A DNA stretch of 30,766 nt from a virus. Lineage: Duplodnaviria; Heunggongvirae; Uroviricota; Caudoviricetes. Below the pieces are notes generated by a model, which saw nothing but the letters and a program-made list of their open reading frames with translations, was not told the DNA's origin and did not search any database. The stretch lies in IMG/VR virus record IMGVR_UViG_2537561688_000008; one strand, given 5' to 3'. This document shows, in pieces, positions 1 through 22,743 of this stretch (the first letter of the stretch is position 1; each line of letters opens with the position of its first letter). The position numbers were made by a program, and so were the translations under genes.

Positions 1-555
1 GAGGAAGAAGTCGAGAGAGTGGTCGGCATTTACGCGCCGCATCTCGGCGCGCGTCATATTCATATCACCAGAACGACGGACTGGCGCATTGTGCCGAAAG
101 TTCCGGTCGTTGAGCCCTTGACTTTAAAAAGCGGCATCGCCGCGCCTCGGAGTCCTGTCAATAACTGTGGAAAGCTCACCGGTGGTGATACTTCGTTACC
201 GGCTCCCACACCTTCTGAGCACGCCGCAGCAGTGCTTAATCTGGTTGATGACGGTGTTATTGAATGGAATGAACCGGAGGTCGTGAGGGCGCTCAGGGGC
301 GCATTAAAATACGACCTGAGAACGCCAAACCGTCAGCAAAGAAACGGAAGCCCGTTAAAACCGCATGAAATTGCACCATCTGCCAGACTGACCAGGTCTG
401 AACGATTGCAAATCACCCGTATCCGCGTTGACCTTGCTCAGAACGGTATCAGGCCGCAGCGATGGGAGCTTGAGGCGCTGGCGCGTAGAGCGACCGTAAA
501 TTATGACGGGAAAAAATTCACGTATCCGGTCGCTGATGGTTGGGGGGATTCATAG
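1..555 (+). CDS. C-terminal part of a phage replication initiation protein (P2 gpA-like); 5' end lies outside the window
   Basis: Open frame runs from base 1 with no stop (the track's ORF 19-555 is its in-window portion). Sits immediately upstream of the cargo island and cos site, where gene A lies in an integrated P2 genome. Identity rests on synteny and recollection, not alignment. Confidence 0.4.
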   Translation, partial: EEEVERVVGIYAPHLGARHIHITRTTDWRIVPKVPVVEPLTLKSGIAAPRSPVNNCGKLTGGDTSLPAPTPSEHAAAVLNLVDDGVIEWNEPEVVRALRGALKYDLRTPNRQQRNGSPLKPHEIAPSARLTRSERLQITRIRVDLAQNGIRPQRWELEALARRATVNYDGKKFTYPVADGWGDS

Positions 556-804
556 GGCGCTTTGATTATTTCTGTGTTTGACATAGAATAGCCCCGTTAC
601 CGCTTGGGACATCTACTTTGCATTACTCTTGGTATTAGCTTTGTACAAAGGGTATAAAGGCTGCTATTGGCAACAATAGTGCTGGCATGGAGATTGCCTC
701 ATGTTAAAGCTAGTGAATGTACGCCAGTACAACCGCTACCGCTTTGGGCGTTGGGAGACGGTGCGTAAGCACCGTCGTTCTTACCCAAAACGATAATATG
801 CGGC

Positions 805-3021
805 CTAAGCGGTAACGTTCTCCTCTTCTAGTTCGTCCATCATTTTTAAATAATGCATTTCGTCACCAGTAGCTGAAAATATTGTTCTCAATTGTTTTAG
901 GTATTTATCTGGGTCTATGTCGCCCATATCAGTAATATTTACCGCATCAGAGTGAGAACCTCTGTTAATGTATCTGTAGAATGCTTTGAAATCACTGTTG
1001 CTATCGTCGCGTGCCAACTTTGTTAATTCATCTTGTAGAGCATCTGTTCTATGAACAAATGCAAAATAATATTCTAGTATGTTTCTCATAATATTAGGTA
1101 TTATGATTTTGTTTGCTTTGCCATCTTTTGCATCTTTTAATATTTGCCACAAAGATTGATATTCATTCTGTATGCTGTTTTTTTGTATTTCAGTAATTAT
1201 ACTAAAATCATTTTTCGTTACTCTACCTAGATAATAGTTTTTCTTAAATAGTTTGTCTTCTCTGCTTTTAGGAGATAGCTTAATAAGTTCATGAAAGAAA
1301 TAAAGATTGTGAGTAAGGATTAATACCTTCTTTGTTAATTCATTTTTTATAATGTGGTGATGAATAATTGATGCGATGTCGTAGACATAGTTTTGCGATA
1401 GACTAGATATTGGATCGTCAATAACAATAAAAATATCCCTGCTATCGGTATCATTTTTATCGGTTTTACCTTTACAGCACTCTAAAAAATAAAGAAACGT
1501 TATTAGTGTTTTTTCACCTTCGCTAAGAGATCTATAAACATTTTGGTTTTTTGTATGCCCTGGTCGAGATATAATGTACATATCTTTTCTTTCTGCATGT
1601 TTTTCAATACAAAAACCAGAGATCCCTAGATTTTTTAAATGGGTGTTTATTGAGTCTATCGTAGAATCAATGTTAGATATTTTATCTCGCAATGCTTTTA
1701 TTGTGAGATTATTTTCTTTTCCTTGTTGCTCAATATTATTTAATTCATCATGAACTTTCTTTTTGATATCAAAGAATTTTTCTTTGTGTTTGGATAAATT
1801 CTCTAAATCATCGCTGCAAAAAGCATGGAGAGCCCCCCAAACTTGTTTTCCGATTTTATTCTCATACTCTTTGAGTTTTTTAACCTTATCATTTATGTCT
1901 CTTATTTTTTTGTTAACAGCGTCTATGCTTTCCTGAACATGATTTTCTAGTTCTTTATCAATTTCTAATGTAACGCATGTTGATGGATTGTTGATCTTAT
2001 CAATAATGTTTATTAAATTTTTTTCTGCAATGTTTTGCAATATTTTAATATTGGAAATAATGATCTCTTTATCTTTCTCATTGATTAGTGCACATGATGA
2101 TATATTGTTTTGTATTTCGTTAAAATGATATATGGTATTTTTCTCATAAACTGACTTTATATCTGAGAGCTGTTTTACTTTCTTTGAATAACTTTCGTCA
2201 AATATTGATTTAAGGGCATTTAAAAATTCGCGACTAATAGTTTTTTCCTGACAAAACGGACATGTAGAACCGTCTAAATAATGTTCTTTACCTTTTTTTA
2301 CCCAGTCAAGATTATGAAGTTTATTAATGGTTTCTGATAAATAGCTATTGCTTGTATCTATTATAGGTGTTGCTAATGTATTTACATCATCAATTGATGG
2401 GGTATATGGGTGTAAAGGAGTTATTAATGCGGTTTCATTGTTTCTATTTTCTAATAGTATAGAGTATTCTTTTGCTATATCATTTAAATTAATAAAGGTG
2501 ATTGGTGAGGATGATTTTATCATCTCAAAAAAAGGTCTTTTATAGCCAACTTTACCTTTCATTAAGATTTTTAGTACAGAGTTTCTGATTGGTTCTGTTT
2601 TTTTCCAGATCGATTCGATGTATTCATTTTCTTTTTTTTCCATTTCTGCTTCTAATTTCAATAACACTCCTTTTTTTTGTCTATATTGCTCTGTAAGTTG
2701 CTGTTTAATTGCTTCTTTTTTAATTAATTGTTTTTCAATATCTGCATTTTCTTTACTTAATGTAAAAACACCTTTTTGTTCCTGTGCATTGTAGAAATTA
2801 TCTTCAATAAATTTAGTGTTGTAAACAAGAGGTTTGTAATTGTCAAGAAGGGTACATTCACACTCGTTATAATCTGTGTGTGTAGAGTCGTAGAAATAAT
2901 TTGAAATGGTAGATTTGCCACAACCATTTTGGCCGTATAGTATGTTTACTCTTTTTTCAAGATTCAGTATTGTGAAGGCGTCTTTCTTATAACTGGTAAC
3001 ATTTTTTAATCTAAGTTCCAT
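805..3021 (-). CDS. ABC-type ATPase with coiled-coil insert and C-terminal putative nuclease domain; RloC/PrrC-like candidate anti-phage protein (cargo island 1)
   Basis: Intact 738-aa ORF. Walker A GQNGCGKST near the N-terminus; ABC-signature-like LSEGEK, Walker B-like IFIVIDDP and H-loop-like LILTHN about 480 aa later; K/E-rich heptad-like stretches in between; CPFC motif mid-insert; C-terminal R-x3-E (RNILE) and R-x6-H (RYINRGSH). Visibly AT-rich compared with the flanking phage genes. GAGG lies 7 nt upstream of the ATG on the minus strand. Confidence 0.6.
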   Translation of the reverse strand: MELRLKNVTSYKKDAFTILNLEKRVNILYGQNGCGKSTISNYFYDSTHTDYNECECTLLDNYKPLVYNTKFIEDNFYNAQEQKGVFTLSKENADIEKQLIKKEAIKQQLTEQYRQKKGVLLKLEAEMEKKENEYIESIWKKTEPIRNSVLKILMKGKVGYKRPFFEMIKSSSPITFINLNDIAKEYSILLENRNNETALITPLHPYTPSIDDVNTLATPIIDTSNSYLSETINKLHNLDWVKKGKEHYLDGSTCPFCQEKTISREFLNALKSIFDESYSKKVKQLSDIKSVYEKNTIYHFNEIQNNISSCALINEKDKEIIISNIKILQNIAEKNLINIIDKINNPSTCVTLEIDKELENHVQESIDAVNKKIRDINDKVKKLKEYENKIGKQVWGALHAFCSDDLENLSKHKEKFFDIKKKVHDELNNIEQQGKENNLTIKALRDKISNIDSTIDSINTHLKNLGISGFCIEKHAERKDMYIISRPGHTKNQNVYRSLSEGEKTLITFLYFLECCKGKTDKNDTDSRDIFIVIDDPISSLSQNYVYDIASIIHHHIIKNELTKKVLILTHNLYFFHELIKLSPKSREDKLFKKNYYLGRVTKNDFSIITEIQKNSIQNEYQSLWQILKDAKDGKANKIIIPNIMRNILEYYFAFVHRTDALQDELTKLARDDSNSDFKAFYRYINRGSHSDAVNITDMGDIDPDKYLKQLRTIFSATGDEMHYLKMMDELEEENVTA

Positions 3022-3336
3022 TTTTATGCCTCATACGATAAAGCTTTTATTGTATGTAAAAAAGCAGCTTAATATAGCCACTTAGTGGTAAAGATCTACC
3101 TTAAGACTTTGATATGTGCAAGAGGCATATAACGTAAGTGTTCGTTGAGCCAAATGTGTTTACGCTATGACGAGTTGGTCGTTTTTTGACAATCCTGTAG
3201 GAGCTATAGATAGGCGTATATTAAGTGCGTGTTTTTGCATGTGTCAGATACTATTCTTTTTGTCAGTTTCGGTCAGTGCTGATGTGATTTCAGTTTCATC
3301 ATGCAACTGCATTAAAACCGCCCCATGAAGCGGGCG

Positions 3337-7417: not shown

Positions 7418-8483
7418 ATGCGCCAGGAAACCCGCTTTAAATTTAATGCCTACCTGTCCCGTGTTGCCGAACTGAACGGCATCGACGCCGGTGATGTGTC
7501 GAAAAAATTCACCGTTGAACCGTCGGTCACCCAGACCCTGATGAACACCATGCAGGAGTCCTCTGACTTTCTGACCCGCATCAACATTGTGCCGGTCAGC
7601 GAAATGAAAGGGGAAAAAATTGGTATCGGTGTCACCGGCTCCATCGCCAGCACCACCGACACCGCCGGTGGCACCGAGCGTCAGCCGAAGGACTTCTCGA
7701 AGCTGGCGTCTAACAAGTACGAATGCGACCAGATTAACTTCGATTTTTATATCCGCTACAAAACGCTTGACCTGTGGGCGCGTTATCAGGATTTCCAGCT
7801 CCGTATCCGTAACGCCATTATCAAACGCCAGTCCCTTGATTTCATCATGGCCGGTTTTAACGGCGTGAAGCGTGCCGAAACCTCTGACCGCAGCAGCAAT
7901 CCGATGCTACAGGATGTGGCGGTCGGCTGGCTGCAGAAATACCGCAATGAAGCCCCGGCGCGCGTGATGAGCAAGGTACTGACGAGGAAGGCACACGACC
8001 TCTGAGGTCATCCGCGTGGGTAAGGGCGGTGATTATGCCAGCCTCGATGCACTGGTGATGGATGCGACCAACAACCTGATTGAGCCGTGGTATCAGGAAG
8101 ACCCTGACCTTGTGGTGATTGTGGGGCGTCAGCTACTGGCGGACAAGTATTTCCCCATCGTAACAAGGAGCAGGACAACAGCGAGATGCTGGCCGCTGAC
8201 GTATCATCAGCCAGAAACGCATCGGAACCTGCCGGCGTCGCGTCCCGTACTTCCCGGCGATGCGATGCTCATCACGAAGCTGGAAAACCTGTCCATCTAC
8301 TACATGGATGACAGCCATCGCCGCGTGATTGAGGAAAACCCGAAACTCGACCGCGTGGAGAACTACGAGTCAATGAATATTGATTACGTGGTGGAAGACT
8401 ACGCCGCCGGTTGCCTGGTGGAAAAAATTAAGGTCGGTGATTTCTCCACACCGGCTAAAGCGACCGCAGAGCCGGGAGCGTAA
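7418..8483 (+). pseudogene. N: major capsid protein (P2 gpN-like) with interrupted reading frame
   Basis: N-terminal 195 aa (MRQETRFKFNAYLSRVAELNG...) end at a stop at 8005; the rest resumes in another frame at 8016. Span 7418-8483 is not a multiple of 3. A short internal stretch of the second ORF also reads out of frame against my recollection of gpN. Confidence 0.7.
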
Positions 8484-8486
8484 CCG

Positions 8487-9227
8487 ATGACGAGTCCCGC
8501 ACAGCGTCACATGATGCGGGTCTCGGCAGCGATGACCGCGCAGCGGGAAGCCGCCCCGCTGCGACATGCAACTGTCTATGAGCAGATGCTGGTCAAGCTG
8601 GCCGCAGACCAGCGCACACTGAAAGCGATTTATTCAAAAGAGCTGAAGGCCGCGAAAAAACGCGAACTGCTGCCGTTCTGGTTGCCGTGGGTGAACGGCG
8701 TGCTGGAGCAGGGCAAAGGTGCACAGGATGACATTCTGATGACGGTCATGCTGTGGCGTCTGGATACCGGCGATATTGCCGGTGCGCTGGAGATTGCCCG
8801 TTATGCCCTGAAGTACGGTCTGACCATGCCGGGGAAACACCGCCGCACCCCGCCGTACATGTTCACCGAGGAGGTGGCGCTGCGGCCATGCGGCTCACGC
8901 TGCCGGTGAATCGTGGATCCCCGCCTGCTGACGGACACCCTTGAACTGACTGCCACGGCAGACATGCCTGATGAAGTGCGCGCAAAGCTGCACAAAATCA
9001 CCGGTCTGTTTCTGCGTGACACTGGTGATGCCGCAGGTGCGCTGGCGCACCTGCAACGTGCGACACAGCTCGACTGTCAGGCAGGCGTCAAAAAAGAGAT
9101 TGAACGACTGGAGCGGGAGCTGAAACCGAAGCCGGAGCCGCAACCCAAAGCGGCCACCCGTGCCACGCGTAAGACCCGGAGTGCGACACCGGCAAAACGT
9201 GGACGCCCGAAAAAGAAAACCAGTTAA
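8487..9227 (+). pseudogene. M: terminase small subunit (P2 gpM-like) interrupted by an in-frame stop
   Basis: Two ORFs in the same frame (8487-8909 and 8913-9227) separated by TGA; residues just before the stop do not read like the flanking conserved sequence, suggesting compensating single-base indels. Confidence 0.65.
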
Positions 9228-9326: not shown

Positions 9327-9834
9327 ATGATGACGCTGATTATTCCGCGAAAGGAGGCTCCCGTGTCCGGTGAGGGTACGGTGGTCATCCCGCAACCGGC
9401 AGGCGACGAGCCGGTGATTAAAAACACGTTCTTTTTTCCCGATATCGACCCGAAGCGCGTCCGGGAACGTATGCGCCTTGAGCAGACCGTCGCCCCTGCC
9501 CGTCTGCGTGAGGCCATCAAGTCAGGCATGGCGAACGAATGCGGAGCTGTACGAGTACCGCGAACAGAAAATTGCCGCCGGTTTTACGCGTCTGGCGGAC
9601 GTCCCGGCGGACGATATCGACGGTGAAAGCATCAAGGTTTTTTACTACGAGCGCGCCGTGTGTGCGATGGCGACCGCGTCGCTTTATGAGCGTTATCGCG
9701 GCGTGGATGCCAGTGCGAAAGGCGACAAGAAGGCCGACAGCATTGACAGCACCATTGATGAACTGTGGCGGGATATGCGCTGGGCGGTGGCGCGCATCCA
9801 GGACAAGCCGCGCTGCATCGTGAGTCAAATCTGA
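9327..9834 (+). pseudogene. L: head completion protein (P2 gpL-like) with frameshift
   Basis: MMTLIIPRKEAPVSGEG... begins inside ORF 9267-9626; the recognisable C-terminal half (...YEYREQKIAAGFTRLADVP...VSQI) is in a different frame (ORF 9478-9834). Confidence 0.6.
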
Positions 9835-13742: not shown

Positions 13743-14646
13743 ATGCCGATTATCGACCTGAACCAGCTACCCGCACCGGATGTGGTCGAGGAGCTGGACT
13801 TTGAAACCATTCTTGCCGAACGCAAGGCGACACTGATTTCCCTTTACCCGGAAGACCAGCAGGAGGCGGTCGCCCGTACCCTGACGCTGGAATCTGAGCC
13901 TCTCGCCAAACTGCTGGAGGAAAATGCTTATCGTGAGCTTATCTGGCGTCAGCGTGTGAATGAGGCCGCACGGGCGGTGATGCTGGCCTGTGCCGCCGGT
14001 AATGACCTTGATGTGATTGGTGCCAATTACAACACCACGCGCCTGACTATCACCCCGGCAGATGATTCGACCATTCCGCCGACACCGGCAGTGATGGAAT
14101 CTGACACCGATTATCGTCTGCGTATTCAGCAGGCGTTTGAGGGCTTAAGCGTCGCCGGGTCGGTGGGTGCTTATCAGTATCATGGTCGCAGTGCCGACGG
14201 GCGTGTCGCGGATATCTCTGTCACCAGTCCGTCTCCGGCCTGCGTCACCATCTCGTGCTGTCACGTGAAAATAACGGTGTGCATCCGAAGACTGCTGGCG
14301 GGTGCGTAACGCCCTTAATGGCGAGGACGTCAGGCCGGTGGCCGACCGCGTGACCGTGCAGTCTGCCGCCATTGTTGAATACCAGATAAACGCCACGCTT
14401 TACCTTTACCCTGGTCCCGAAAGTGAACCCATCCGCGCGGCCGCCGTGAAAAAACTGGAAGCATACATCACGGCACAGCACCGGCTGGGGCGCGACATCC
14501 GTCTGTCTGCCATTTATGCCGCTTTGCATGTGGAAGGTGTGCAGCGTGTCGAACTGGCTGCACCGCTGGCCGACATCGTGCTCAACAATACGCAGGCGTC
14601 TTTCTGTACCGAATACAGCGTCGTGACCGGAGGCTCGGATGAGTGA
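13743..14646 (+). pseudogene. J: baseplate protein (P2 gpJ-like) with frameshift
   Basis: Split into ORFs 13743-14309 and 14302-14646 in different frames; the end of the first ORF (...CVTISCCHVKITVCIRRLLAGA) reads as out-of-frame sequence. Confidence 0.65.
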
Positions 14647-15169
14647 TTCGCGACTGCTGCCGACCGGCTCATCACCGCTTGAAGTCGCCGCCGCAAAAGC
14701 CTGTGCGGAAATTGAAAAAACGCCGGTCAGTATTCGTGAGCTGTGGAACCCGGATACCTGTCCGGCAAATCTGCTGCCGTGGCTGGCGTGGGCGTTTTCG
14801 GTCGACAGGTGGGATGAGAAGTGGCCGGAAGCGACAAAACGCGCCGTTATCCGCGATGCGTATTTCATCCACTGTCATAAAGGCACTATAGGTGCAATCC
14901 GGCGTGTGGTGGAGCCGCTCGGCTATCTCATCAACGTGACGGAGTGGTGGGAAAACAGTGACCCGCCCGGCACCTTCCGGCTTGATATTGGTGTACTGGA
15001 AAGTGGCATCACAGAGGCAATGTATCAGGAAATGGAACGGCTGATTGCTGATGCCAAACCTGCAAGCCGCCACCTTATTGGTCTGAACATTACCCGGGAC
15101 ATTCCCGGCTACCTGTTCGCCGGTGGTGTGGCTTACGACGGCGATGTAATTACGGTTTACCCCGGATAA
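14639..15169 (+). CDS. I: baseplate protein (P2 gpI-like)
   Basis: 176-aa ORF overlapping the J stop. Confidence 0.85.
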   Translation: MSDSRLLPTGSSPLEVAAAKACAEIEKTPVSIRELWNPDTCPANLLPWLAWAFSVDRWDEKWPEATKRAVIRDAYFIHCHKGTIGAIRRVVEPLGYLINVTEWWENSDPPGTFRLDIGVLESGITEAMYQEMERLIADAKPASRHLIGLNITRDIPGYLFAGGVAYDGDVITVYPG

Positions 15170-15179
15170 GTGAGGAATA

Positions 15180-17474
15180 ATGAGCACAAAATTCAGAACC
15201 GTTATCACCACTGCCGGTGCAGCAAAGCTGGCAGCGGCAACCGCACCGGGAGGGCGGAAGGTCAATATTACCACGATGGCCGTCGGGGATGGCGGGGGTA
15301 AATTGCCTGTCCCGGATGCCGGACAGACCGGGCTTATCCACGAAGTCTGGCGACATGCGCTGAACAAAATCAGCCAGGACAAACGAAACAGTAATTATAT
15401 TATCGCAGAGCTGGTTATTCCGCCGGAGGTGGGCGGTTTCTGGATGCGTGAACTTGGCCTGTACGATGATGCGGGAACGCTAATTGCCGTGGCGAACATG
15501 GCCGAAAGTTATAAGCCAGCCCTTGCCGAAGGCTCAGGGCGTTCGCAGACCTGCGCATGGTCATCATCGTCAGCAGTGTGGCCTCAGTGGGCTGACCATT
15601 GACACCACAACGGTGATGGCACGCAGGATTACGTTGATGACAAAATTGCAGACATGAACAGTCACGACGTCACCCGACGCCTCGCTGACCGCAAAAGGTT
15701 TTACTCAGTTAAGCATGCGACCAACAGCACGTCTGAAACACTGGCCGCAACGCCGAAAGCGGTAAAGGCCGCGTATGACTTGCTAACGGGAAATAACGCC
15801 AGGAGCCACCAAGCGCGAAAAGGCCTTGTCCAGCTCAGTAGGCCACCAACAGCACGTCTGAAACGCTGCGCAACCCAAAGCGGTAAAGGCAGCATATGAC
15901 CTGCTAACGGGAAATAACGCACAGGAGCCACCACGCGCGAAAAGGTCTTGTCCAGCTCAGTAGCGCACCAACAGCGATTCTGAAACGCTTGCGGCAACGC
16001 CAAAGGCGGTTAAGACAGCGTATGACCTTGCTAACGGGAAATACACTGCACAGGAGCCACCACGGCGCGGAAAGGTCTTGTTCAGCTCAGTAGCGCCACC
16101 AACAGCGATTCTGAAACGCTGGCTGCAACATCAAAAGCGGTGAAGTCTGCCTATGACAATGCTGAAAAACGTCTTCAGAAAGATCAGAACGGTGCGGATA
16201 TTCCGGGAAAGGATACCTTCACGAAAAATATCGGTGCCTGTCGTGCTTATAGCGGCGCTTTGAGCACTGAAGCCGGAAACTGGACAACCGCTCAGTTTAT
16301 TGAATGGCTGGATTCCCGTGGTGCATTTAATCATCCGTACTGGATGTGCAAAGGCTCCTGGTCATATGCAAATAACAAAATCATTACGGATACCGGATGT
16401 GGTGATATCCACCTGGCTGGTTGTGTCGTCGAGGTCATGGGAACTAAATCTGCAATCACTATCCGAGTGACCACGCCGACAACATCAAGTGGTGGCGGTA
16501 CAACCAGCGCGCAATTCACTTACATTAATCATGGGGACGGCTACTCCCCCGGCTGGCGTCGTGACTGGAATCGTCAGGGCGACGCAATGACCGGAACGAT
16601 TAATCAGGATGGCGGAAGCCAGAATGCCTATATGTCTACGGCCTTATGTTCAGGCACCAGAGGCGGCAAAAAATATCTCAGAAAGTTTCGTGGTGGAGAA
16701 GGAGACACTATCTGGCATGAAACAGTACAGGGCGGGGTAGTTCGCTGGGCGACTGGTAATACTGATGCTCAGGAAGAATTATCACTCAGCTCCGCTTATG
16801 GTCTCCGTTCAAGAGGTGAGATTACATCACTCAGTGCTAATGGTCTGCGCATTGCTTATGGCAATTATGGTTTCTTTATCAGGAATGATGGCAGCAGCAC
16901 TTATTTTATGTTGACTAAATCAGGTGACAGATTAGGCAGTTATAATAATTTAAGACCGCTGATTATAAATGATGCCACGGGTGCTGTATCAATGGGGCAT
17001 GGCCTGAATGTTACTGGTGATATTGTCTCAAGTACCAAAGTACGTGCCGGTAGCGGGAAAAAATTCACGGTCAGCAGCAGTAATACATCCACGAAGGAAG
17101 CCGCATTCAATTTGTGGGGAAACTCAAGTCGTCCGGTGGTGGCTGAATTAGGTGATGATGCAGGCTGGCATTTTTACAGTCAGAGAAATACAGATAACAG
17201 CATCACTTTTGCTGTTAACGGGCAGGTATCACCATCTAACTATGGCAACTTTGATTCACGCTATGTCCGGGATATCCGGCTTGGTGGTGCTGCCACATAC
17301 AAACCTGCGAACAATGGCATGACATGGACACATCAGGCACCGTCCGGGTGTGTATATTCCGGCATTATTGTTCAGGATACCGGCTCAAACTCTGCCGATA
17401 ACATTGGTGGCATATATTACAGACCGGTGCAGAAATACATTAACGGGACATGGTATAACGTGGCGCAGGTATAA
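15180..17474 (+). pseudogene. H: tail fiber protein (P2 gpH-like); conserved N-terminus, frame-disrupted repeat region, distinct C-terminal receptor-binding part
   Basis: N-terminal 140 aa (MSTKFRTVITTAGAAKLAAATAPG...) stop at 15602; repeats at 15697-16140 are in shifting frames; a long intact ORF (16140-17474) encodes the distal fiber ending ...YINGTWYNVAQV. Confidence 0.7.
15697..16140 (+). repeat. About 3.5 imperfect tandem repeats (~122-131 bp unit) inside the tail fiber gene
   Basis: The unit ...gctcagtag(c)gccaccaacagc..tctgaaac.ctg..gcaac.ccaaagcggt.aag.c.gc.tatgac.tgctaacgggaaata...caggagccaccac.gcgcgaaaagg.cttgt.cagctcag recurs from ~15697, ~15839, ~15961 and ~16092, with small indels between copies. 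Confidence 0.7.
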
Positions 17475-17477
17475 TTT

Positions 17478-18005
17478 ATGCAGCATTTGATAAATATAAC
17501 GGTGGGTAATCCAAAAACGGTTGAACAATATCAATTGACAAAGGACTTTGATGTTGTCTGGTTTTTTTCAGAAGATGGTAAGAACTGGTACGAAGAACAA
17601 AAGTATTTTGCTGATGACACGATAAAAATAGCGTACGACAAAGATAATATTATCCGCTATGTGGAAAAGGATGTGACAGCTATCAGACCAGATGGATTAA
17701 GTGTGGTTGAAGTGGCGGATATTACTGCTAACCGACGGGCGGACATTTCAGGGAACTGGATGTTTAAGGACGGCAAAGTGATTAAACGCATTTATACGGC
17801 AGATGAATTGCAGCAGCAGGCAGAAAACCGGAAAGCCAGACTTCTTGCAGATGCTGAATCCGTGATTTTGCCACTGGAGCGCGCTGTCAGGCTGAACATG
17901 GCAACAGATGAGGAGCGTAGCCGACTGGAAGCATGGGAACGCTACAGTGTTCTGGTCAGCCGTGTGGATCCTGCAAATCCTGAATGGCCGGAAATGCCGC
18001 AATAA
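17478..18005 (+). CDS. G: tail fiber assembly chaperone (P2 gpG-like)
   Basis: 175-aa ORF directly after H, as in P2. Confidence 0.85.
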
Positions 18006-18480
18006 GTTGTATAAGCTCTGGTGTGAGATTACATATCTATGGCACAGAGTAAAGCCTAATCTGACAGTCCGCTCTGTGCCAAGAGCGGACGTTACTACTA
18101 CTCGACCTAAAGTAAAGCAATTGTACTCATTAAATAGTGGTAATTGGGTCTGGTGCTTAATCGAACGAAATCTCATGTTAGGCGAAAAAAACGTCTGAAA
18201 AATCGATTAACACATACACCTGTGTACTATGGCCGTTATTCAATTTAAAAGGAACCATTTCCGATATGATTCACTGTCCATAATGTTTTGATTTATTAAA
18301 AAAGAGCCTTAGAGTGTGAAACCATTACGTTGAGTGGCGAACACCATTAATAAATTCTGCTTATACTTACAGCATATATTATGTTCACGTCATATAACCA
18401 TGGCAAATAAGATATTGCACATCAAGCATGATTATGATAGTGATTACAAAAATGAAGAATCTTAGATAAAGGATTAGTAA

Positions 18481-19416
18481 GTGGTTACATATAATTCAAT
18501 GTTGTTACCCCCCCCTAAATCTTGGGACGAATTTGAGGATATGTGCAAAAGTTCATTCCAACTGCGATGGTCCAATCCTAATCTGAACAGACATGGACGG
18601 TCAGGGCAGCGGCAGGATGGAGTTGATGTATATGGTGATGACTCTCTTGGGCGTTTCGTTGGAATTCAGTGTAAAAATACAGTATCAGGAATCAGTACGG
18701 CGACAATCGATGATGAATTACTCAAGGCTGAAAAATTTCGCCCAAAAATTACGGTTCTTTACATCGCTACGACAGCGCCCAGGGATGTTAGCATTCAGCG
18801 CTATGTAAGAACACTCAATGATGCCAGACAATTAAAAGGCCTGTTTCCTGTCGATGTGGTTTTCTGGGAGGATATTAGCTTTGATTTAAGCAAAGACCCA
18901 GCTGTACTCAAAATGTACTACCCGCAAATGTTCGAACGACACCAACCGACGAGGGAAGAATTTTTGCGCAAGAGAGATATCTCAAATTTGTCGACATTGT
19001 TGAATGTTATTGATTTTCATTCAACAATAGAACATTTGCAGTGGGGCGCAAAATACATTCATTCATTAATTATTGAAGAATACGATAATATTTTGAACAT
19101 TTTAAACTCACCTGTTTTTCAACTGAATGATACAGCTTTAAAGAATGTTACAATTGATTTTGCAACGGCCTGGCGTGATCTAATTATCTTGTTTAGAAAA
19201 GCTCCATATAATTATTCAGCACCAAATGATACTTTTAGTTTTATAAATCCCGGTGACCACTGTCGAAATCAGGAGGAAAGCGATTTATACGACGAAATCA
19301 CGCATAGCATGAGTAATCTCAAAGATAAAATTAGTACTTTTTGTGACTTTATAAATAATCACTACCATGAAATAAACTTAACCGAAACGAGCGCGCAAGC
19401 CAGGAAATATTATTAA
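18481..19416 (+). CDS. Hypothetical protein with N-terminal Mrr-like restriction endonuclease (PD-(D/E)xK, D...QxK) motif and a C-terminal domain of unknown function (cargo island 2)
   Basis: Intact 311-aa ORF with a GTG start at 18481 and AAAGGA 7 nt upstream (alternative ATG at 18499). N-terminal segment ...WDEFEDMCKSS...GQRQDGVDVYGDDSLGRFVGIQCKN... fits the Mrr catalytic pattern (acidic, DGxD, then hydrophobic-QCK). AT-rich; lies between G and FI. Confidence 0.7.
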   Translation: MVTYNSMLLPPPKSWDEFEDMCKSSFQLRWSNPNLNRHGRSGQRQDGVDVYGDDSLGRFVGIQCKNTVSGISTATIDDELLKAEKFRPKITVLYIATTAPRDVSIQRYVRTLNDARQLKGLFPVDVVFWEDISFDLSKDPAVLKMYYPQMFERHQPTREEFLRKRDISNLSTLLNVIDFHSTIEHLQWGAKYIHSLIIEEYDNILNILNSPVFQLNDTALKNVTIDFATAWRDLIILFRKAPYNYSAPNDTFSFINPGDHCRNQEESDLYDEITHSMSNLKDKISTFCDFINNHYHEINLTETSAQARKYY

Positions 19417-19693
19417 TACTTTTTTCTTAAGGGCTGCACTCATGGCCCTTAACACCGTTAGACTGTCATATTTTGCAATCGATACGCAGTTAGGTACTTT
19501 CTTGAAGTCCGTTCCTCGCTCATAGCTGACATTCAGCTCAATTAACTCGTCCACTTCGCTCCAACAGAAGGCGTAGCTAATCATACTGTGTATTAAAGAA
19601 AGGAGAAACGATCATGTTGAGTACAAAAAACACGAAAGACCATGATAAGGAAAATATGCGTAGAGTGACTTAGTTTATTGATTTAAATAATAT

Positions 19694-19870
19694 TTATGGG
19701 GGTAAGTGCTTTGAATAAAAAAACAAAAATTGAGAAGATTTAGCTAGTGCCAAAATAATTTGGACACCGCCCGTCATCAGACCCGCTACTACACTTATCA
19801 CCCCAGCCCAAAAAGTTTCAATGAAACAAGATACATATAGTAGTACTACATGGCGGAATAATTTACTCAT
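19694..19870 (-). CDS. Small hydrophobic (probable membrane) protein, 58 aa
   Basis: Minus-strand ATG at 19870 preceded by TAAGGAG with a 6-nt spacer. Product MSKLFRHVVLLYVSCFIETFWAGVISVVAGLMTGGVQIILALAKSSQFLFFYSKHLPP has a clear transmembrane-like segment. The ORF could extend upstream to 19999 (101 aa), but that start has no RBS. Confidence 0.45.
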   Translation of the reverse strand: MSKLFRHVVLLYVSCFIETFWAGVISVVAGLMTGGVQIILALAKSSQFLFFYSKHLPP

Positions 19871-20200
19871 AGGCTTCTCCTTACTGACGTAATCGTTAAG
19901 TAACACGTTGAGGTAACGGATAAATGCGACTATTGGGAGAGCTGTGATGAGAATTGTAGGCATAGGAATCGAACCTATGGATGCACTAGCTAAATTCACT
20001 CTTCACGAATTATACAGCATTGTAGTGAGTTTGTAAATACACGCCCCAAAAGTCAATCAGTCCGCTCCATGAATGTTGTGTCAGTACTACTAAAGTTAAA
20101 CATGCTAAAATAGGTTCCCAATATTCGTGGGTACAATCACTATCTGTGTAACTGGCGGAAGCGCTGGCATAACGACGATGCCTATTCGGGGGGCTTTAAT

Positions 20201-21067
20201 ATGGTCCGTTTTAACTTACTAGAAAATGCGTTGGATTCAGTGGAAACCGGGCTGGACTACTTTAACAAAGCGCTAGAAGGGCATGATCGACGTGACTACA
20301 AACAGTGCCTGCTTAACCTCTTTCAGGCCGCTGAGCTATTGTTGAAGGCCGTAGTTTCGCGCAATGGGTCTGGAGCGATTTTTAATCCAGCATCGCTTCA
20401 AGAAAAATGTGTGGATCCGGCGCATCCAACCGAGTCAGAATTACACCAGTGTAAATCTGTCAACGTCAACCAGCTTTGTAAGCTGTTAAAGACATATTAC
20501 CCAGCCGAATTTTCTGAATCTGCATTACAAATGATGAAAACGGTGGGTCAGTTGCGTAATAACCTTCAGCATTTTGCCCTTGAGGTTCGTCCGCAAGAAC
20601 TGGCAATGCAACTGAGTGAACTGTACCAACAAATTTTTCGTCCCGCATTCGTCATAATTCAGTCAGATGAGACCGAAAATTCATGGAACTCTGATTTACG
20701 TCAAGACATCATCGCTCTTGAGCAACAATTCCTTGATATAACTGTTAACCAGGAATACACCCTTGCACTTTGTCCCGTTTGTGAGAGTTTTTCACATTTT
20801 ATCCTTTACCAAAGTGAAAGCTTTCCGGCACGGACTCACTGTATCTGTTGTGGTTTCAGCCTGAATAATCTGCAAACTTGGGATTTTCAGGAATGTCCTG
20901 AATGTAGTGTCCCATCCGTAATTTATTTACCGGAACAAAGGGTCGGTGTCTGTCTCTGGTATAAATGTGAATACAGCAAGATGGATGGTTTTGTTCCTAT
21001 GGAGCCTTGTGAATGTGGTGCATTCCGGATGGAAGGTCATTGCAGTAACTGCGATCTTGAGGAATAG
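20201..21067 (+). CDS. Hypothetical protein with N-terminal HEPN-like helical domain (Rx4H motif) and C-terminal cysteine-rich (multi-CxxC) zinc-ribbon-like region (cargo island 2)
   Basis: Intact 288-aa ORF. Helical N-terminal part contains LRNNLQHF (R-x4-H). The C-terminal ~110 aa carry paired cysteines (CPVC, CICC, CPEC, C-x-C, CSNC). AT-rich. Confidence 0.65.
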   Translation: MVRFNLLENALDSVETGLDYFNKALEGHDRRDYKQCLLNLFQAAELLLKAVVSRNGSGAIFNPASLQEKCVDPAHPTESELHQCKSVNVNQLCKLLKTYYPAEFSESALQMMKTVGQLRNNLQHFALEVRPQELAMQLSELYQQIFRPAFVIIQSDETENSWNSDLRQDIIALEQQFLDITVNQEYTLALCPVCESFSHFILYQSESFPARTHCICCGFSLNNLQTWDFQECPECSVPSVIYLPEQRVGVCLWYKCEYSKMDGFVPMEPCECGAFRMEGHCSNCDLEE

Positions 21068-21430
21068 TAAAATCGTCCGATGAGAATGTACAGCAGCCTG
21101 GTCGATGATTTCTTGATGAATCGCTGAATTATCCGGTATTACTTGACAACTAAATCGCACATTTCTGTTTCTGGCAATTTGAAAGGTTTACTCTATGCCC
21201 CAGAATTCAGCACATACATAAAAACACCATTTCAGAACGCGTCTTGATCCAAAGAACGACTGTATGATAGATAGGCGTCGTCGTGAGGACAGGAATGATC
21301 TACCCCCCGTTATTCATACAGAATGCTGTTAGTAATGTCCGCAGATCGCTCAAAGCAGACTGTCAGATTTGATAGCGTTTGGGCTATGTAAGTAGCCAGT
21401 TGGAGAATGAGTGAGTGCAAATCAGGACTG

Positions 21431-21552: not shown

Positions 21553-22743
21553 ATGAGTGACTATCATCACGGCGTGCAGGTGCTGGAGATTAACGACGGC
21601 ACCCGCGTCATTTCCACTGTATCCACTGCCATTGTCGGCATGGTCTGCACGGCCAGCGATGCGGATGCGGAAACCTTCCCCCTCAATAAACCTGTGCTGA
21701 TTACCAATGTGCAGAGCGCAATTGCAAAGGCCGGTAAAAAAGGCACGCTGGCGGCATCGTTGCAGGCCATCGCTGACCAGTCAAAACCGGTCACCGTTGT
21801 CGTGCGCGTGGAAGACGGCACCGGCGACGACGAAGAAACGAAACTTGCGCAGACCGTTTCCAATATCATCGGCACCACCGACGAAAACGGTCAGTACACC
21901 GGACTGAAAGCCCTGCTGGCGGCGGAGTCAGTAACCGGTGTTAAACCGCGTATTCTCGGCGTGCCGGGACTGGACACCAAAGAGGTGGCTGTTGCACTGG
22001 CATCAGTCTGTCAGAAGCTGCGCGCTTTCGGGTATATCAGCGCATGGGGCTGTAAAACCATTTCCGAGGTGAAAGCCTACCGCCAGAATTTCAGCCAGCG
22101 TGAGCTGATGGTCATCTGGCCGGATTTCCTCGCATGGGATACGGTCAGCAGCACCACCGCCACCGCGTATGCCACCGCCCGTGCGCTGGGGCTGCGTGCT
22201 AAAATCGACCAGGAGCAGGGCTGGCATAAAACGTTGTCCAACGTCGGGGTAAATGGTGTTACCGGCATCAGCGCATCTGTATTCTGGGATTTGCAGGAGT
22301 TCGGCACCGATGCTGACCTGCTTAACGAGTCAGGCGTCACTACGCTGATTCGCCGCGACGGTTTCCGCTTCTGGGGTAACCGTACCTGCTCTGATGACCC
22401 GCTGTTCCTCTTTGAAAACTATACCCGCACCGCGCAGGTGCTGGCCGACACGATGGCTGAGGCGCACATGTGGGCGGTGGACAAGCCCATCACCGCAACG
22501 CTGATTCGCGACATCGTTGACGGCATCAATGCCAAATTCGTGAGCTGAAAACAAACGGCTATATCGTGGATGCGACCTGCTGGTTCAGCGAAGAATCCAA
22601 CGATGCGGAAACCCTCAAGGCCGGAAAACTGTATATCGACTACGACTATACACCGGTGCCTCCTCTTGAAAACCTGACCCTGCGCCAGCGTATTACCGAT
22701 AAATACCTGGCAAATCTGGTCACTTCGGTTAACAGCAATTAAG
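21553..22743 (+). pseudogene. FI: tail sheath protein (P2 gpFI-like) with C-terminal frameshift
   Basis: 331-aa ORF (21553-22548) is followed without a gap by a second frame encoding ...ELKTNGYIVDATCWFSEESNDAETLKAGKLYIDYDYTPVPP... up to 22743; the combined span matches a ~396-aa sheath protein. Confidence 0.7.

Follow-up and report, generated by a model that had tools for sequence, protein, structure and literature searches.

Frameshifts in the tail fibre gene H of a P2-like prophage in a draft Escherichia coli contig are very probably assembly errors

The receptor of bacteriophage P2 is the core of the lipopolysaccharide, and the mosaicism of fibres between P2, Mu and the T-even phages is long established, reportedly since the 1992 work of Haggard-Ljungquist and colleagues. 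The P2 fibre, gpH (NP_046775.1), is a protein of 669 aa whose gene lies upstream of that of the chaperone gpG. Mu possesses the fibres S (gp49, PDB 5yvq) and S' (PDB 8ju3) in an invertible system (S/U, S'/U' with Gin). The fibre of vB_YpM_115 and 117 (WOZ56008.1, 764 aa) belongs to isolated P2-like Yersinia phages plated on Y. pestis EV76. Lastly, the fibre of the P2-like coliphage P88 has a T4 gp34-like fold in the middle of the protein and two hypervariable regions near the C-terminus; a swap of the short region HR2 (aa 716-746, 31 aa), or changes of single residues in it, alter host range, and domain swapping, which the first-pass annotation of the present locus had proposed as a route to host-range change, is thereby documented in P2-like phages (PMC5285337).

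The window which we analysed, 30,766 nt in length (IMG/VR record IMGVR_UViG_2537561688_000008), is the whole of contig AQBX01000080.1 from the draft assembly GCA_000358635.2 (E. coli p0305293 series). The locus considered here, gene H, belongs to a P2-like (Peduovirus) prophage of enterotoxigenic-lineage E. coli and encodes a trimeric tail fibre. Over its full length the gene can be aligned with a tail fibre CDS of 2,319 nt in NZ_CP025916.1 (ETEC strain 120899), the best of the matches listed. It is preceded by the gene for tail protein I (14639-15169; ORFs and Pfam) and followed by gene G, whose product has 75% identity to P2 gpG and 73% to Mu U. The late-operon order V-W-J-I-H-G, with the Caudo_TAP chaperone after the fibre gene, is evident from the ORFs and Pfam matches, and is the same in P2 and in NZ_CP025916.1. 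The features, with residues numbered as in the intact protein, are:

15180-17474, + strand: gene H, P2-type tail fibre; 2,295 nt here versus 2,319 nt and 772 aa when intact
15180-15681, + strand: N-terminal tail-collar or baseplate-attachment domain, aa 1-169 (PF12571, E 4.4e-58 on the intact relative)
15553-16055, no strand: patch of 24 single-base consensus deletions, very probably an assembly artefact (deletions only, not in homopolymers, at paralog- or unit-variable sites)
15682-16190, + strand: four phage tail fibre repeat units of 44 aa (132 nt), aa 170-345 (TRF; four PF03406 matches)
16191-16625, + strand: segment related to phage Mu S' (the G(-) fibre), aa 346-490 (PDB 8ju3, E 4.6e-80)
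16788-17051, + strand: Gp34_trimer-type trimerisation segment, aa 545-632 (PF21446, E 2.4e-25)
17052-17276, + strand: P2 gpH-like distal segment, aa 633-707 (58 of 73 residues, 79%, identical to P2 gpH 540-612)
17277-17426, + strand: hypervariable tip segment, aa 708-757 (divergent from P2, Mu and vB_YpM_115)
17427-17474, + strand: conserved C-terminal 15 aa and stop codon (14 of 15 identical to P2 gpH, 12 of 13 to Mu S)
17478-18005, + strand: gene G, tail fibre assembly chaperone (PF02413 Caudo_TAP, E 7.9e-35)

In the deposited contig gene H is not a single frame. It is read as an ORF of 140 aa from the true start, one of 81 aa, other short ones and then an intact ORF of 444 aa (16140-17474), the last as had been claimed for the distal part. 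The NCBI proteins ENG37545.1 (140 aa) and ENG37546.1 (444 aa) reveal that the breaks were already in the record as deposited. The annotation had the gene region begin at 15697; gene H in fact extends over 15180-17474, and its first frame break, at 15553, lies upstream of the tandem array. An uninterrupted frame is found in the full-length matches listed from complete genomes. Matches covering at least 80% of the gene H query occur in 173 complete E. coli genomes, the 25 matches listed all cover 100% of the query and span 2,319 nt, and more than 100 contigs carry the identical 772-aa protein. With the 24 missing bases restored the gene of the window also specifies 772 aa, and differs from WP_000104742.1 (e.g. 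NZ_CP025916.1 4159450-4161768) by D46N only. The two loci share the gene order I-H-G and the same downstream accessory genes, and differ in 13 silent or near-silent nucleotides and in the splitting of the present gene by its single-base consensus deletions. The real gene H is intact and encodes a catalogued protein, and we ascribe the failure of its frame in the deposited contig to assembly error.

The N-terminal domain (PF12571 extends over aa 1-151 of the intact protein, and was matched on the 140-aa ORF of the window as well) is 96% identical to that of P2 gpH (163 of 169 residues, aa 1-169). It is broken here by five missing bases, at 15553, 15590, 15620, 15652 and 15675. The corresponding baseplate-binding part of the Mu fibres is different, although these share one repeat unit and the C-terminal motif with the present fibre.

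The first reading of the sequence had described a tail fibre gene of the P2 gpH type with a tandem array, having more repeats than P2 gpH, and was correct on both counts. TRF finds one array in the window (15720-16157; period 122, 3.5 copies, 87% matches, 5% indels, score 598), and it encodes the motif ...LSSATNS.SETLAATPKAVK.AYDLANGK... that had been quoted, in four copies versus two in P2 gpH. In the intact gene TRF returns the true period of 132 nt (44 aa) with 0% indels. The units start at aa 170, 214, 258 and 302, and PF03406 matches the intact relative in four stretches after the collar domain (E 8.4e-77). The unit HMM which finds four units here finds two in P2 gpH.

That the distal part differs from P2 had likewise been claimed, and this holds for aa 346-632 and 708-757, which are without counterpart in gpH; aa 633-707 and the last 15 residues are P2-like. 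The segment aa 346-490 is 71% identical to Mu S' 189-333 (103 of 145 residues), and has no match in P2 gpH. The stretch aa 491-544 was without a match in the segment comparison with P2 gpH and the Mu fibres. PF21446 extends over aa 541-604 of the intact protein, and aa 545-632 correspond to Mu S 270-341 with 79% identity (57 of 72 residues); the sequence matches of the trimerisation region in the structure database are to Mu S (5yvq, E 1.4e-52) and T4 gp34 (4uxe/5nxf, E 1.8e-25). The fold of most of the distal part is settled by these matches to the solved structures of Mu S', Mu S and T4 gp34. Judged by sequence similarity, known modules are combined as a mosaic in the distal part, namely those of Mu S', of the trimerisation domain of Mu S and T4 gp34, of P2 gpH and of a peduovirus tip.

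The tip, aa 708-757, has no match to P2, Mu S, Mu S' or vB_YpM_115, while aa 690-772 are 95% identical in the isolated peduoviruses P24E6b, P24C9, P22H1, D8 and 10W-12W. The fibre of vB_YpM_115 and 117 is 97-100% identical per segment over aa 1-707, including the four repeats and the Mu-like segments, but ends in an unrelated tip. The P88 fibre has the same architecture as the present one, and aa 708-757 sit at the position of HR2. On the basis of this position and of the divergence pattern, rather than of an alignment to P88, the tip may be considered the equivalent of HR2 and the likely determinant of receptor specificity.

Unlike Mu, gene H has no invertible G segment, invertase or alternative fibre and chaperone set beside it. 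There is one fibre gene and one chaperone, the ORFs at 18481-21067 are unrelated accessory genes, and no DNA invertase is annotated in the intact relative. These accessory genes (18481-19416, + strand; 20201-21067, + strand) are two in number and lie between the chaperone gene G and the sheath gene FI, that is, in the Z/fun position of P2. The first specifies a 311-aa protein with no Pfam or PADLOC match, for which PHROGs gives phrog_8991 (unknown function). The first 139 aa of the second, a 288-aa protein, match the candidate family PDC-S64 (E 4.3e-21), with weak HEPN-type hits (DUF3644, Csm6). Both genes are possible anti-phage cargo. Over nearly its whole length a 737-aa AAA ATPase (805-3021, - strand; phrog_2801) matches PDC-S06, a candidate defence family of PADLOC (E 8.6e-254); its gene lies between the replication gene A and the portal gene Q, where P2 has old/tin.

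The copies of the repeat had been said to differ by small indels which break the frame. The breaks are indeed present in the record, but they consist of 24 one-base deletions with no insertion, and we regard them as errors of assembly. As shown by alignment of positions 1-28243 with the intact prophage of NZ_CP025916.1, which lies beside yegQ, the two are 98.8% identical over 28.2 kb, and all 43 indels inside the prophage are single-base deletions in the window (0 insertions), clustered in six patches. Gene H holds 24 of these, 19 of them missing from the array (15714-16055). By comparison there are four substitutions in 15500-16500 and about one in the deletion patch. A homopolymer or slippage origin of the indels is ruled out, 32 of the 47 deleted bases being in runs of length 1.

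Other genes of the prophage are also affected. Single-base deletions break the capsid gene (7976-8258), the small terminase gene (8881-8912), the head completion gene L (9532-9533) and the baseplate gene J (14253-14300), and those at 22536 and 28024 break the sheath gene (FI) and ogr, respectively. The deletions characterise the contig rather than the repeat, and although they give the entire prophage a defective appearance in this record, it is probably not defective in reality.

The lineage possesses a second P2-like prophage, located at cpxP/fieF. In the closed reference the annotation gives its fibre gene (NZ_CP025916.1 2065588-2067579) as two incomplete pieces of a pseudogene, and the Z/fun position is occupied by a gene for an S1 peptidase. 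At its right end the window has a flank (fieF-pfkA-IS621) with 100% identity to this other chromosomal site of the same ETEC lineage. From about 28152 the alleles switch to those of the cpxP/fieF-site prophage and run into fieF, pfkA and the IS621 transposase gene (to 30766). Since the body of the contig matches the yegQ-site prophage and its end has the flank and alleles of the cpxP/fieF site, parts of two prophage loci are joined in it, and it appears to be a chimera.

The positions of the deletions follow the sites at which the two prophages diverge. Of the 44 gap columns in a three-way alignment, 24 are at such sites, versus a background of 3.6% of all columns (binomial p = 2.6e-23), and all 44 are in the regions with a paralog, which make up 74.8% of the prophage (P = 2.9e-6). 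There are no deletions in the 7.0 kb without a paralog (555-3298, 16202-17252 and 18091-21336). Within the array 16 of the 19 deletions are on columns that vary between repeat units. At the sites which differ between the prophages the window has allele 1 at 597, allele 2 at 137 and neither at 17; between 15522 and 15745 such sites are called as neither allele, and all six deletions in this interval are on them.

Derivation of the window from both prophages of strain 120899, as a simple two-parent mosaic, was considered; it fits in part only, alleles of neither reference being present. Among the sites that differ between sibling drafts, 100 carry alleles of neither reference prophage; therefore either the paralogs of the source strain are not identical to those of strain 120899, or there is a third copy. 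Three copies of the capsid are present in one related strain. At about 45% of the deleted columns the two reference prophages agree, and these columns require a third copy, differences peculiar to the strain, or misplacement from one repeat unit to another.

The truncated 140-aa product led, besides the contig itself, to the sibling drafts AQBV and AQBT, which were compared with the window. From the strain names, which have the form E. coli p0305293.N, we infer that these drafts are several isolates of one sample. They contain 28 (AQBV) and 75 (AQBT) deletions versus 43 in the window, at positions that overlap in part, and a single insertion was counted in the siblings together. At paralog-variable sites each sibling has sometimes allele 1, sometimes allele 2 and sometimes a gap, and the gap in one is often the allele of the other prophage in another. 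Six deletions (15553-15714) are common to all three. Stripping of IUPAC ambiguity codes was also considered as a cause; no letters other than A, C, G and T were found in the assembly sequences analysed, and the breaks are already present in the protein calls of NCBI. The array of AQBV is free of deletions, reads in frame and is identical to the intact protein. The fibre is accordingly not the unusual one that had been implied: an in-frame array identical to that of a known fibre, the result which the first reading had named as its own refutation, is present in AQBV and in complete genomes of the lineage. In AQBV01000085.1 (10475-12313) there is a block of 16 amino-acid differences from the window at fibre aa 529-624 (residues 369-464 of a 612-aa ORF), which suggests that the AQBV consensus followed another paralog there.

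Because of the deletion pattern, the placement on paralog-variable sites, the disagreement between siblings and the identity of the repaired gene, we consider it very probable that the frame-breaking indels are consensus errors of a draft assembly which mixed similar prophages, rather than a feature of the phage, and that the real gene H is intact. The reads of two or three P2-like prophages resident together would have been piled into one consensus, as would those of adjacent repeat units, and a base would often have been dropped at columns where the merged reads disagreed; we infer the exact software step.

If the consensus is in error the number of units might be so too, the true array having more or fewer than four which short-read assembly collapsed or expanded. 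Short reads do not easily resolve 132-nt units that are about 90% identical, the consensus of this stretch has been shown above to be unreliable, and relatives with three, five and six units exist. Four units are nevertheless present in all three sibling drafts and in eight complete genomes of the lineage with an identical flank, and the units differ enough (at 62 of 132 columns) to be ordered, which makes an artefact of copy number very improbable.

In neutral decay substitutions far outnumber indels, and the latter are of mixed sizes, blind to paralog differences and the same in closely related isolates. It is very improbable that the deletions are real and that gene H (with N, M, L, J and FI) is a true pseudogene of a decaying prophage in this strain. 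The breaks are in the deposited record and the NCBI protein calls, the six deletions common to the three sibling assemblies could, if taken alone, look inherited, and in the reference lineage the fibre gene of the second prophage is annotated as disrupted. The spectrum is not that of a genuine pseudogene, however. The events are 1-nt deletions only (43, against 0 insertions), with nothing larger and almost no substitutions in the patch; they are outside homopolymers, enriched on paralog-variable sites and found only where a paralog exists; the missing bases differ between the sibling drafts; and the six in 15522-15745 are all on sites which differ between the prophages, where neither allele was called.

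Repeats in surface-recognition genes are classic contingency loci and the broken stretch overlaps the tandem array, but biological switching, such as phase variation driven by slippage or programmed frameshifting in the array, has a negligible probability: the unit is 132 nt and relatives differ by whole units of 44 aa (728, 772 or 816 aa), the missing bases are outside mono- or dinucleotide tracts, no simple tract able to change length reversibly was found in the sequence of gene H, 24 separate frameshifts cannot be read through, and non-repetitive genes are hit by the same defect.

With the errors of assembly set aside, the gene offers nothing new, the protein, the four-unit array and each of the distal modules being already known from complete genomes and isolated phages. 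By homology to P2, Mu, T4 and P88 the collar domain would dock the fibre trimer on the baseplate, the four 44-aa repeats would form part of the shaft, and the distal modules would trimerise, their folding helped by the downstream chaperone gpG. The hypervariable tip, as P88 indicates, would give receptor specificity. Homology and the P88 swaps together suggest that the fibre binds a host surface receptor and sets host range.

The number of units varies within this family of fibres. Of the 120 closest clusters 39 have three units, 71 have four, seven have five and three have six, such that four is the commonest copy number among close relatives; those with three, four, five or six units are otherwise 91-100% identical, P2 has two, and the lengths of the fibres step by 44 aa. 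Gain or loss of units keeps the frame because 132 nt is a multiple of 3. One might speculate that this polymorphism is an adaptive tuning of length, in which unequal recombination in the 132-nt array would govern the reach of the tip through O-antigen or capsule and thereby help to set host range, independently of the tip module; we think this rather unlikely.

For phage genes of this kind the case carries a caution, in that a series of frameshifts, when restricted to one repeat-rich gene of a draft contig, can mimic decay or switching. It also supplies a cheap and reusable test, which consists of asking whether the indels are all of one kind, whether they fall on sites that differ between paralogs, and whether they are discordant between sibling assemblies.
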